This document shows, in pieces, positions 3,018 to 62,292 of a stretch of 64,000 nt of DNA; the stretch's first letter is position 1; every line of letters begins with the position of its first letter. The DNA lies in IMG/VR virus record IMGVR_UViG_3300032321_002024, positions 160,001 to 224,000 of that record; one strand, 5' to 3'. A program made the position numbers and the translations under genes. The stretch is from a virus (Duplodnaviria; Caudoviricetes). The notes below the pieces were generated by a model, which was not told where the DNA came from, did no database searches, and saw only the letters and a program-made list of their open reading frames with translations.

Positions 3018-3454
3018 AAAGAAGAATAAGAATGAAACTACTTTCTGAGTGTAAAAATAAACTTCAAGTTGTTAAGTTAATTAAAGACTGCACTGGATTA
3101 GGTTTAAGAGAGTCTAAAGATATCGCTGATGAAATGTTCAACCATATTGGTTTAGTCAAAGAAATTGAGTTAAGAGAGCCTTATATAAAAGAAGGTAAAA
3201 CTTTTAATCCATATGAAGAATTCGCAAAAAACATTCAAGATTTTGGTCATTTTCATGTCACCGGTGGATTATCTTGGGAAAGAGATGCAAAAATGTTAGG
3301 AATTGGTGTCGGTGATGTTGAAGATTATGCTAACTTTGTATCTGAGTATATGAGTTATAATAACTCTGATGAAAATAAAATGATTTTAGAAGTTCTTTTT
3401 TCTAAATTAAAGAAAGAAGATTTAGTTGAATTAGTAAATCAAATCAAAATATAA
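3014..3454 (+). CDS. ribosomal protein L7/L12 C-terminal-like domain protein
   Basis: NKLQVVKLIKDCTGLGLRESKDIAD matches the L7/L12 CTD signature KI.VIK.VR..TGLGLKEAK..V. Confidence 0.7.
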   Translation: MKRRIRMKLLSECKNKLQVVKLIKDCTGLGLRESKDIADEMFNHIGLVKEIELREPYIKEGKTFNPYEEFAKNIQDFGHFHVTGGLSWERDAKMLGIGVGDVEDYANFVSEYMSYNNSDENKMILEVLFSKLKKEDLVELVNQIKI

Positions 3455-3455
3455 T

Positions 3456-3851
3456 ATGGCAAACGCATTTATACACGCAAAATCATCAGCTCGTCGTTAT
3501 GGTGGTGAACCAGACGACTACCTAGCAATTCATATCAAAATGGATTGTTCAAAGGCTTACGTTGCTGATAACAGGCACCGTGCGCTCACTCATACCAACT
3601 TTTGGATCCACGAAGTAATGCTTCCGATTTTTGGATACACATTCACAAATTCCGCAGGAAAAATAGTATCTGTAAAAGATGTTTGTGAACAACACATACT
3701 TGAAGATTTCGGTATGAAATTCATACCCACGGCACAGGACTACATTGAGAATATGGAATTCAAAGACTGGATGCAAAATGGAATTAAAGGACACCCATCT
3801 TCGTTTAGGAAATTAGCAGATAAAGGAAATATTAAAGTAAATTTAGACTAA
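3456..3851 (+). CDS. conserved phage protein (DUF6915-like, His-rich)
   Basis: HAKSSARRYGG...HRALTH...EQHILED pattern recalled from a phage DUF family. Confidence 0.55.
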   Translation: MANAFIHAKSSARRYGGEPDDYLAIHIKMDCSKAYVADNRHRALTHTNFWIHEVMLPIFGYTFTNSAGKIVSVKDVCEQHILEDFGMKFIPTAQDYIENMEFKDWMQNGIKGHPSSFRKLADKGNIKVNLD

Positions 3852-26901: not shown

Positions 26902-27030
26902 GGGGATGTAGCTCAGTGGTAGAGATTAAACTTCTCTTTTGAAATTTTACCTTGTAAGAGTGTTGATTGAAAGAGTTACTTCGTATATTTTGAACATATA
27001 AGGTCGTTGGTTCGAATCCAACCATCCCCG
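26902..27030 (+). tRNA. atypical tRNA (anticodon TGA, short variable loop) interrupted by a 57-nt insert
   Basis: Removing 26925-26981 gives a 72-nt cloverleaf GGGGATG..GCTC/GAGC..TATAT-TTTGAAC-ATATA..TTCGAAT..CATCCCC-G. Confidence 0.65.
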
Positions 27031-27118: not shown

Positions 27119-27202
27119 GGAAGAGTAATTAAGCTGGCGCTTGACCTAGTCTTGAAAACTAGTGGTACTGAAAGGTATGGGGATCGATACCTCACTCTTC
27201 CG
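27119..27202 (+). tRNA. tRNA-Ser(TGA)
   Basis: CTAGT-CTTGAAA-ACTAG; long variable arm; G73. Confidence 0.88.
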
Positions 27203-27209
27203 CAAAAAA

Positions 27210-27296
27210 GGAGAATAAACTAATCTGGTGATTAGGACCGCCTGCTAAGCGAGTCGCACGTTGAATTTGTGTGGGGTTCAATTCCTCTGTTCTCCG
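27210..27296 (+). tRNA. tRNA-Ser(GCT)
   Basis: CGC-CTGCTAA-GCG; long variable arm. Confidence 0.88.
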
Positions 27297-37404: not shown

Positions 37405-37493
37405 GGGCTTGTAGCTGATTTGGTTTTAGCTGGTGACTGTTAATCACTGTATGAAAAATTGAAATAAAGTAGGTTCGAATCCTGCCTGGCCCG
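37405..37493 (+). tRNA. tRNA-Asn(GTT) with enlarged variable region
   Basis: GGTGA-CTGTTAA-TCACT; about 20-nt AT-rich variable region. Confidence 0.8.
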
Positions 37494-37500
37494 CAAAAAT

Positions 37501-37817: not shown

Positions 37818-37937
37818 ATAACAGATGGTGATTAAGAGTGTTACTTCGTGAAATTGGTATACACATTTGACTTATAATCAAACTTTTGAGGGTTCAAGTC
37901 CCTCAGTAAAATCACTCTCAAGACTTTCCTCTGTTAT
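37818..37937 (+). ncRNA. tRNA-like element (D, anticodon TAT and T arms) enclosed in a long non-tRNA stem
   Basis: TTTGA-CTTATAA-TCAAA and GAGGG-TTCAAGT-CCCTC arms flanked by AGAGTG/CACTCT and ATAACAGA/TCTGTTAT helices. Confidence 0.6.
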
Positions 37938-60945: not shown

Positions 60946-61018
60946 CGCGGGGTAGAGCAGTTGGAAGCTCGCAAGGCTCATAACCTTGAGGTCACTGGTT
61001 CGAGTCCAGTCTCCGCTA
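60946..61018 (+). tRNA. tRNA-Met(CAT), initiator-like
   Basis: CAAGG-CTCATAA-CCTTG; C1:T72 mismatch. Confidence 0.9.
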
Positions 61019-61025
61019 CAAAAGA

Positions 61026-61059: not shown

Positions 61060-61897
61060 GTCTTTAACAGTCGGTTTCGGCTGACTGTGAAAAGAAGGGC
61101 GGCTTATAGTCCTTAAAATAAACTTCGAAAGGAGGATAAAGTGAATCCAAAGCAAAATGGATTTGCGTCTTGAAAGTTCTTCGGAACAATTGAGGTCGAG
61201 TAAGCAAGTGGGATACCACAAATTCTGAGTAGTCGAGGGTAACACTGTAGACCAAATGAGTTTGTGACCAGGCAATTGTAGATTGTTTGGTTGACCTCGG
61301 AAGAGGAATAGGAATAACCCATAGGTCTGTTGCGAGAAGTGTTGACTCACCGGTCTTCATCATTGCGGAGTCCAACTTAAGAGGTGTCTTAAAGTTGAAA
61401 GACAATCAAGTGTACGGGTGGTGCTGTTACTTGACACTCTACTCTCTACCAGGAGAGTTGTTGTGAAGATATCTTAAAAAGTTGTGATGGAGGCATCACA
61501 CGGAGTTGTCCAGTATTCCTGAGTTCAAAAGATTTGGGAGCTGAAAGGTAACCACAACTTCGACAAAATCTACAAAGCACTACAATTTAAATGTAAAAAC
61601 TTAAATCGAAAGTGTTACCTAGTTACTGGTGAAAGGTACCTACTTAGTCGTGAGTGTTCACGGCCACTGAAGCTCGAAAGGCTGATGTGATTTCATCGAA
61701 AAGCTTATAGAGGGTCGAACCTCGAGTCAGCTCGCAAGGTTGAGTAAGTGGATTAAATGGAGAGTAATTAGTAACTTAAGGAGTGGTTAGTCTAACTAAC
61801 CGGTATTGGCAGAATACTTCTCAAAAGGGAGTGGATAAGAAGGGAAACCATAATCTAACAAAAGTTCTGTCGTAATAAGGTGTAATCTCAACCTTTT
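61060..61897 (+). ncRNA. large structured ncRNA, GOLLD-like (boundaries approximate)
   Basis: About 840 nt, GC-enriched, no plausible + strand ORF, many hairpins (GNRA-type loops), located within a tRNA cluster; family inferred from size and context only. Confidence 0.6.
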
Positions 61898-62191: not shown

Positions 62192-62265
62192 GGTCTTTTA
62201 ACTCAGTTGGTTAGAGTATCTCGCTCATAACGAGAGAGTCGTAGGTTCGAGTCCTACAAGGACCA
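62192..62265 (+). tRNA. tRNA-Met/Ile2(CAT)
   Basis: TCTCG-CTCATAA-CGAGA; elongator-type body. Confidence 0.88.
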
Positions 62266-62292
62266 CTATTAATGAATTAAATAGTAGGTAAA

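Follow-up and report, generated by a model that had tools for sequence, protein, structure and literature searches.

The DNA stretch analysed here (the window, 64,000 nucleotides) corresponds to G000:160001–224000 of a 262.6-kb virus record that is 84% complete and whose closest relatives are two uncultured huge phages, LR745206.1 (634 kb) and LR756502.1 (642 kb). ARAGORN identifies 25 tRNAs in the window, distributed in five blocks and including a standard tRNA-Ile(UAU) at 33460–33534. Two tRNA-like elements, here indicated as A (26902–27030) and B (37818–37937), are located within these blocks at a distance of 5–8 nt from the neighbouring tRNAs, and no internal promoter or terminator is found in the blocks that contain them. 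A long-arm canonical tRNA-Ser(UGA)-like gene is positioned 90 nt downstream of A.

Two class-II tRNA-Ser-like genes (27119–27202 and 27210–27296), directly 3' of a tRNA-Arg(ACG), have anticodon loops CTTGAAA (UGA) and TGCTAAG (GCU) and long variable arms in both cases; this pair is reported neither by ARAGORN nor by Rfam at its gathering threshold, and the T loop of the gene at 27119–27202, ATCGATA, is unusual. A GOLLD RNA (Rfam RF02032, 281.7 bits) is present at 61501–61894, between the tRNA-Met genes at 60946–61019 and 62192–62266. Moreover, long tRNAs of 82–90 nt with class-I anticodons (Asn GUU, Arg UCU, Lys UUU/CUU), whose length is due to long A/U-rich variable regions, occur at 37405–37494 of the window and recur in related huge phages (L001:1400–1489 and 1743–1829, L003:1030–1295, L004:1904–2173).

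Element B starts at G000:197818 on the plus strand; ARAGORN classifies it as tRNA-Ile(TAT), and with the Rfam tRNA model it reaches 51.5 bits. Its 5' end (37818..37828, +) is the 5' strand of a terminal helix, P1, with the sequence ATAACAGA-T-GG, in which the T at 37826 is bulged; the GG and the following TGA form a GGUGA sequence, the counterpart of the GNCGAA motif of the Y RNA YrlA (RF02553) when mapped from the cmscan alignment. The strand indicated as X (37829..37848, +) is composed of the junction J12 (TGATTA), the 5' strand of a second helix, P2 (AGAGTG), and the conserved TTACTTCG, whose UUAC corresponds to the YrlA 'YUAY'. A tRNA-shaped domain follows (37848..37904, +), recognized by ARAGORN, by the Rfam tRNA model and by stem covariation, in which the D, anticodon and T arms are found in tRNA order, with the anticodon arm TTTGA/CTTATAA/TCAAA (37866–37882, +; anticodon TAT), the V loop CTTTT and the T arm GAGGG/TTCAAGT/CCCTC. 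Strand Y, AGTAA-AAT-CACTCT-CAAGACTTT (37905–37927, +), includes AGTAA, which pairs with TTACT, a bulge (AAT), the P2 3' strand (CACTCT) and the junction J21 (CAAGACTTT), and the P1 3' strand CC-TCTGTTAT (37928–37937, +) closes the element, whose order is P1(5')-X-core-Y-P1(3'). The acceptor region continues into a long leader-trailer helix of 30 bp with a G2-A71 mismatch; B is thus not the uninterrupted cloverleaf with identity elements expected of a decoding tRNA-Ile(UAU), since its acceptor is fused into this helix.

Element A, which starts at G000:186902 on the plus strand, is a tRNA-like gene that scores 45 bits on the Rfam tRNA model with an insertion of 57 nt. The tRNA-like 5' part (26902..26924, +) contains the acceptor 5' strand GGGGATG, TA and the D stem and loop up to G24. 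The following segment (26925..26963, +) comprises a spacer (ATTAAACTT), strand Y, with the P2 3' strand CTCTTT(T) and J21 (TGAAATTTT), and a self-closed P1; after G24 (26924) it reads ATTAAACTT, CTCTTT(T), GAAATTTT and ACCTT-GTAA-GAG-T-GT, the last of which is P1 with a GUAA loop and a bulged T at 26961. In sister copies of A the P1 cap is GUAA, GUGA, ACAA, AUAA or a longer loop. Strand X (26964..26983, +) consists of TGATTG, the P2 5' strand AAAGAG, TTACTT and CG, and this CG (26982–26983) serves as tRNA nucleotides 25 and 26. The tRNA-like 3' part (26984..27030, +) is composed of the anticodon-type arm TATAT/TTTGAAC/ATATA (anticodon TGA), AGGTC, the T arm GTTGG/TTCGAAT/CCAAC, the acceptor 3' strand CATCCCC and the discriminator G; CCA is not encoded. 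The order is therefore tRNA 5' part-Y-P1(3')-GUAA loop-P1(5')-X-tRNA 3' part. By inspection, the insertion (26925–26981) separates G24 from C25 in the D stem; without it, A would be a perfect class-I cloverleaf with anticodon UGA. A long variable arm is required by bacterial seryl-tRNA synthetase; A, with its 57-nt arm in the D stem and a V loop of only 5 nt, does not have the features of a decoding tRNA-Ser(UGA).

The original prediction had described at these two loci (37818–37937 in B, 26921–26983 in A, where the analysis places the module at 26925–26981) the same bipartite module in a circularly permuted arrangement, i.e., tRNA 5' part, Y, loop, X and tRNA 3' part in A and X-[D, anticodon TAT and T arms]-Y in B, and sequence and structure agree on both points. 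A small correction concerns B, whose 3' junction aligns by structure 1–2 nt from the 'AG|' that had been indicated. The module consists of P1 with its bulged U, GGUGA, P2 and UUACUUCG, facing CUCUYU..AAAYUUU; in both elements X has the form TGA-nnn-ARAGnG-TTACTTCG and Y the form CnCTYT followed by an A-rich/T-rich stretch.

The resemblance between the two loci could in principle be due to chance in AT-rich spacers or to the decay of functionless pseudo-tRNAs, and the 9-mer GTTACTTCG alone, with 11 matches at ≤1 mismatch in the window versus 8.0 expected, is not significant and fits such an explanation. In contrast, the 20-nt X pattern gives three forward matches and no control matches in the 262-kb genome, and about 35 homologues show compensatory changes in the P1, P2, anticodon, T and acceptor stems and a linkage to genes of the TROVE (Ro60) family; covariation and synteny refute chance and decay, to which we attribute practically no probability.

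The TTACTTCG sequence marked homologous elements in both huge-phage relatives, and an exact scan of IMG/VR with the X pattern retrieved 58 loci, about 20 of which are chance matches inside ORFs and about 35 true copies of the module on huge-phage contigs. These figures underestimate the diversity and copy number of the family because the pattern fixes strand X; for example, the copy indicated as Y1 in LR745206.1 has UAA, in place of GGUGA, and AUAC. Five layouts can be distinguished. The first is a bare hairpin of 67–75 nt; the second, of B type, has the module around an acceptor-less or nearly complete tRNA core; in the third (L054) a complete tRNA-Pro(UGG), scoring 67.6 bits, is nested in the apical loop; in the fourth (L051, L010, L016, L029) the module surrounds a permuted tRNA, X being followed by a hairpin, a T arm, an acceptor stem that a loop or spacer closes, a D arm and Y; the fifth, of A type, has the module inside the tRNA. 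In the fourth layout the acceptor stem of L051 is closed by about 4 nt, and the L010-type and L016-type copies have capped acceptor stems of 7 bp. A-type and B-type elements are found together in other genomes as well (L041 with L043, L053 with L067).

Three further observations concern the loci of these elements. In L020 (IMGVR_UViG_3300022843_000009, minus strand, ~3450–3690) a chimera has no tRNA parts other than an acceptor stem (GGGGAGG/CCTCCCC), a hairpin of T type and an ACCA end present in the gene; a capped module is inserted directly behind the acceptor 5' strand, and the chimera is immediately followed by a bare module. Just downstream of the A-type RNA, L041, L049, L067 and L072 have a short ORF with many Ser, Lys and Arg codons, e.g., MK..SSKSSSRSS. 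A B-type element around D, anticodon and T arms is present on the minus strand of L081 (contig CAYTNJ010000025.1 of a Candidatus Peribacteria MAG), a 15-kb contig binned as a CPR bacterium that may be a mis-binned phage contig.

The alignment of the homologues reveals extensive covariation. The P1 architecture is constant, with 5+2 bp, one bulged pyrimidine and an internal loop that starts with UGA and faces AAAyUUU; the 28 copies with an open P1 have 17 different outer helices, all of which are complementary and each with a single bulged pyrimidine. P2 changes in a compensatory manner (AGAGTG/CACTCT, AAAGAG/CTCTTT, AAAGTG/CACTTT, AGAGCG/CGC.CT). RNAalifold on 12 B-type copies predicts 22 pairs in P1, P2 and the stems of the anticodon and T arms, with compensatory (double) changes at 14 pairs, and the acceptor, anticodon, T, P1 and P2 helices are likewise kept with compensatory changes in the A-type copies (n=7). 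In the latter the loop motif UUGAA (anticodon UGA) is conserved in seven out of seven copies while its stem changes, a conservation that is left unexplained by a pure scaffold role. Strong sequence conservation is limited to the 5' strand of the module, with P1 and P2 covarying, and the same pattern of a conserved 5' strand is found in bacterial Y RNAs (PMC4201824; bioRxiv 10.1101/312249).

Several known motifs were considered for the module and rejected. A hammerhead (UGA...GAAA) lacks stem III and its GA is not conserved; for the hairpin ribozyme, and for kink-turn, loop-E and UAA/GAN motifs in the internal loop, the defining nucleotides are not conserved across the copies; none of these has an Rfam match. 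The architecture, with variable cargo between two mutually pairing strands, does not fit an IS200/IS605-type TTAC cleavage site, and a promoter or mini-ORF in strand X is not supported since the ATG and the hexamers are not conserved.

The B-type elements and those similar to L054 might be considered ordinary tRNA precursors, in which the X/Y helix is a removable leader-trailer stem, processed by an RNase III-type activity or gated by Ro60, so that B, once cut by RNase P and trimmed at its 3' end, would mature into a decoding tRNA-Ile(UAU). The score of B on the tRNA model and its six out of seven acceptor pairs (TGTTACT/AGTAAAA), the canonical tRNA-Pro(UGG) inside the L054 module and the anticodon loops of the B type, which keep Y32-U33...R37 and would read A/U-rich codons (UAU, UAA, CAA, UCU, UUU), are consistent with this possibility. 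However, the acceptor-like pairing (P3) is absent in the B-type copies L001, L002 and L021, which keep P1, P2 and the core, the G2-A71 mismatch is retained in B, L015, L053 and L066, and the window already contains a standard tRNA-Ile(UAU); in addition, the predicted +1 site for RNase P falls within X, and a cut there would separate P2 from UUAC in the stretch of the module that shows the highest conservation. Maturation into a decoding tRNA appears therefore quite unlikely; it would in any case be compatible with Ro60 binding, the difference residing only in the fate of the core.

The genomic position of other copies of the module points to a protein partner. The phage genome encodes a TROVE protein of 483 aa (G000:62659–64107, +; PF05731, E=6e-21), whose best match among solved structures is the Ro60 of Thermus phage phiLo (9L5Y/9KOP, E=4e-25). 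The third copy of the module in the genome, Y1, is a bare module of ~75 nt at G000:62276 (+), about 320 nt upstream of the TROVE ORF. Between Y1 and this ORF a structured RNA of ~290 nt, Y2 (G000:C1:62350–62640, +; also at L005:1560–1860), shows an outer stem GCAAACA/TGTTTGC, the motif GAGATACTTCGA, UACUUCG and an intrinsic terminator; Y2 is conserved in eight phage loci, without Rfam matches at E≤1 and without obvious tRNA-like arms. Y1 and Y2 are thus directly upstream of the TROVE gene, and A and B are on the same strand at a distance of 124–135 kb.

The linkage is not confined to this genome. In 10 related contigs the module is found ~380 nt upstream of a TROVE gene (identified by tblastn) on the same strand, although the X-pattern scan was blind to TROVE, and none of the chance X-pattern matches inside ORFs is near such a gene. 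The module also adjoins TROVE genes that are only 32–38% identical, in L024 (just downstream), L035 (~2 kb upstream) and L051 (just upstream). A scan of prokaryotic genomes under stricter conditions revealed, in a Thermochlorobacter MAG, a module that directly precedes a truncated ORF; the 42 N-terminal residues of this ORF can be aligned with the N-terminus of the phage TROVE protein. On the whole, Y1, Y2 and 13 other loci are within ~4 kb of a Ro60 gene and on the same strand, which is not the case for A and B. TROVE is encoded in nine of the 12 near-complete module-bearing phage genomes or large contigs, and it has been described in only a small subset of jumbo phages (PMC7824862). Intact modules are present without a detectable TROVE gene in LR756502.1 (642 kb), G002 (100% complete) and G005 (94% complete), which would need a host Ro60 or another partner; host Ro60 proteins do exist, as indicated by Bacteroides thetaiotaomicron, positive in the TROVE control search.

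A second line of evidence comes from the comparison with YrlA. The RF02553 model matches two relatives end to end, L024:1750–1875 with 52.2 bits (E=1e-9) and L051:5018–5132 with 38.9 bits (E=1e-5), both below the gathering score of 69 bits. The YrlA-like stem of L024, GTGGA-T-GG TGA TAG GAAGGG ATACTTCG ... TCCCTTCC TAACTTT CC TCCAT, is the same module and shares with it the bulged U, GGUGA, a P2 of 7 bp and AUACUUCG; in the cmscan alignment its UGGUGA falls on the cggCga of the model (the GNCGAA motif) and its UUAC on the conserved YUAY after the YrlA 'anticodon stem'. This element sits between the TROVE gene and a bare module, which comes after it as YrlB follows YrlA. RF02553 gives no match on A or B at E≤1; in these elements P1 ends, past the bulged U, in (G/A)(G/U)UGA, a variant of GNCGAA(N)G in which C is changed to U and the second A is missing. 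The lack of a match, the low scores of the relatives, the distance of 124–135 kb (YrlA being defined by a neighbourhood of 4 kb) and GGUGA in place of GNCGAA count against A and B as Y RNAs.

Both A and B have a tRNA-like domain by their Rfam scores, with covarying stems, and A fits the YrlA consensus in its D arm, TAGCTCAGTGGTAGAG(C), as well as in its T arm, GGTTCGAATCC. The YrlA order (5' stem, V, T, capped acceptor stem-loop, D, 3' stem) is found in L051, L024, L010, L016 and L029 and not in A or B. When A and three sister copies were opened at the P1 cap and joined at the acceptor ends, the permuted sequences were collinear over their whole length with the L024, L051, L010 and L016 elements, through the stem, UUACUUCG, hairpin, T arm, acceptor, D arm and return strand. 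A is thus a circularly permuted YrlA layout in which the acceptor end is free, the terminal stem is capped and an anticodon-type arm occupies the place of the V stem-loop.

Taken together, the TROVE linkage and the YrlA likeness make it quite probable that A and B are Y RNAs in which a Ro60-binding stem is grafted onto tRNA bodies. The X/Y module is most likely the stem for which binding to Ro60 (Rsr/TROVE) is predicted, belonging to a divergent YrlA-type lineage of Y RNAs of huge phages; this phage most likely has four Y RNAs, Y1, Y2, A and B, the last two of which are probably tRNA-shaped decoys or tethers in different circular arrangements. Of the alternative offered by the original prediction, a catalytic or protein-binding motif tied to tRNAs, the second term fits, with Ro60/TROVE as the most likely protein, and catalysis is unsupported, since no ribozyme family, among them the small self-cleaving hammerhead, hairpin, twister, pistol, hatchet and HDV-like types, is matched in Rfam at E≤1.

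The role in circularization or trans-splicing suggested at the same time finds no support. It would imply that the module is an intron-like signal for splicing or circularization, a bacterial-phage analogue of the archaeal bulge-helix-bulge: cuts after G24 and before C25 of A, by a protein endonuclease with a ligase or by the RNA itself, followed by ligation would yield a functional tRNA(UGA), and the permuted copies, with the 3' half preceding the 5' half, would give circular pre-tRNAs. Removal of 26925–26981 yields an intact cloverleaf, in which G10 pairs with C25, G26 is present, the anticodon stem has 5 bp, the 7-nt loop contains U33 and A37 and the V loop is AGGUC; an intron would leave the same product, a point that counts against the Y RNA interpretation. 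Similarly, L016, L029 and L010 hold a tRNA 3' part, a spacer and a 5' part between X and Y, an order known from the permuted tRNA genes of Cyanidioschyzon. The single ORF of the RNA-ligase family PF09414 in the genome is uninformative. On the other hand, X and Y are separated by just a short loop in the bare modules next to TROVE genes, so that there is nothing to splice, and the permuted copies fit the YrlA model, the acceptor closed by ~4 nt in L051 having no tRNA ends to release. Neither a PF01974 endonuclease nor RtcB (PF01139) was found in the 262-kb record, which is 84% complete, and ribozymes and group I/II introns are absent from the Rfam matches at E≤1, only tRNA being matched at A and B by cmscan with all 4227 families. 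The inferred A/B junctions, by inspection, face each other across the helix and are not two 3-nt bulges separated by 4 bp. Finally, the nearby long-arm tRNA-Ser(UGA)-like gene implies that A, which has no long variable arm, is not needed for decoding, and the conservation inside the A-type copies extends beyond the junction to the whole Ro-stem signature. Bulge-helix-bulge or permuted-tRNA maturation, demoted by the TROVE linkage and the YrlA collinearity, is considered very unlikely.

As Y RNAs, A and B would presumably be co-transcribed with the tRNAs of their operon and excised by the same end-processing; given the blocks devoid of internal promoters and terminators and the spacing of 5–8 nt, the processing of the neighbouring tRNAs should define their ends. 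The two ends of B would pair into the Ro60 stem, which takes the place of the acceptor stem on the D-anticodon-T core. In A, where the cloverleaf is complete, this stem would be capped by a loop of GNRA type and project from between nucleotides 24 and 25. Cleavage by RNase P, trimming of the 3' end and addition of CCA may convert A into a Y RNA that is in one piece and ends in a tRNA acceptor; copies of the L010 and L016 types are predicted substrates of RNase P that would generate two-piece forms. A CCA-adding enzyme (PF01743) was not found in the genome record. The conserved 5' strand (bulged U, GGUGA, P2 and UUAC) is proposed to dock on the outer face of the Ro60 ring, and the tRNA shape could recruit, or be protected by, RNase P, the CCA-adding enzyme, modification enzymes and 3'-5' exoribonucleases such as PNPase. 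The outcome would be a Ro60 that is tethered or gated for (t)RNA surveillance during infection, as in the RYPER complex.

[quoted passage not shown] In that case Ro60 would be coupled to an aminoacylatable tRNA, which could sense or distract host nucleases or synthetases directed at the anticodon, or else be kept as a reserve tRNA gated by Ro60, and the layouts (a tRNA with the stem inserted, a permuted gene derived from a tandem and containing a spacer loop, a compact YrlA) would preserve the path from tRNA genes to Y RNAs.

More generally, one phage lineage displays one Ro60-type stem in at least five connectivities, some of them in tRNA operons far from the Ro60 gene. These could represent a natural series of intermediates between tRNA genes and YrlA, with a bearing on the origin of Y RNAs; the phage Ro60 would be tied to the tRNA supply of the phage itself, and the elements offer ready-made constructs for asking what the tRNA-shaped domain recruits. 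The chimeras also distort and inflate the tRNA inventories of phages, since B is called tRNA-Ile(TAT) and A a tRNA by ARAGORN and Rfam.

Among known systems, YrlA (RF02553), described in Salmonella, Mycobacterium and mycobacteriophages, shares with the module RNAs the conserved 5' strand of the Ro60-binding stem, a 6–7-bp helix, YUAY and a tRNA-shaped domain with the D arm GUAGCUCA..GGUAGAGC and the T arm GGUUCGA, and usually two Y RNAs are found beside the Ro60 gene. Unlike YrlA, A and B carry GGUGA instead of GNCGAA and belong to tRNA operons separated from the TROVE gene by over 120 kb; A has a capped terminal stem, an acceptor end that is open in the gene and a full anticodon-type arm for the V stem-loop, and B has the order D-AC-T versus V-T-AS-D. 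In Mycobacterium smegmatis, YrlA, with an acceptor stem of 7 bp, undergoes an RNase P cut and CCA addition while bound to Rsr (PMC4201824); the free acceptor end that YrlA obtains in this way is directly encoded by A.

The layout of B is that of Yrn1 of Deinococcus radiodurans, a component of the RYPER complex, in which the Ro60 stem formed by the 5' and 3' ends is at the acceptor position and is followed by D-, anticodon- and T-like elements (PMC4201824). B has a canonical D arm, a 7-nt anticodon loop, a V loop and a tRNA score, whereas Yrn1 has a 6-nt loop and an uncertain D arm; moreover, Yrn1 binds Ro through a metazoan-like sequence in which the two strands are both conserved, unlike B. 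In Thermus phage phiLo, phiRo60 (9L5Y, 9KOP) binds two Y-like RNAs, Yrl1 and Yrl2, encoded directly upstream of its gene, like Y1 and Y2, and complexes with the host PNPase (PMC12135203); these RNAs differ in their CGAA motif, and tRNA shape, permutation and placement in tRNA arrays are unreported for them.

The permuted tRNA genes of Cyanidioschyzon merolae and the two-piece tmRNA genes also have the same fold with a changed connectivity, comparable to the 3' part-spacer-5' part arrangement of L016, L029 and L010. Such genes give rise to a functional tRNA or tmRNA after bulge-helix-bulge splicing or a simple cleavage, whereas the permuted forms of the module are YrlA-like with no sign of ligation; nothing relevant on permuted tRNAs or D-arm introns in phages was found in the literature. 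Y RNAs that mimic tRNAs are already known, and what is notable in the elements described here is the natural circular permutation, the location in tRNA operons and the free acceptor end encoded in the gene.
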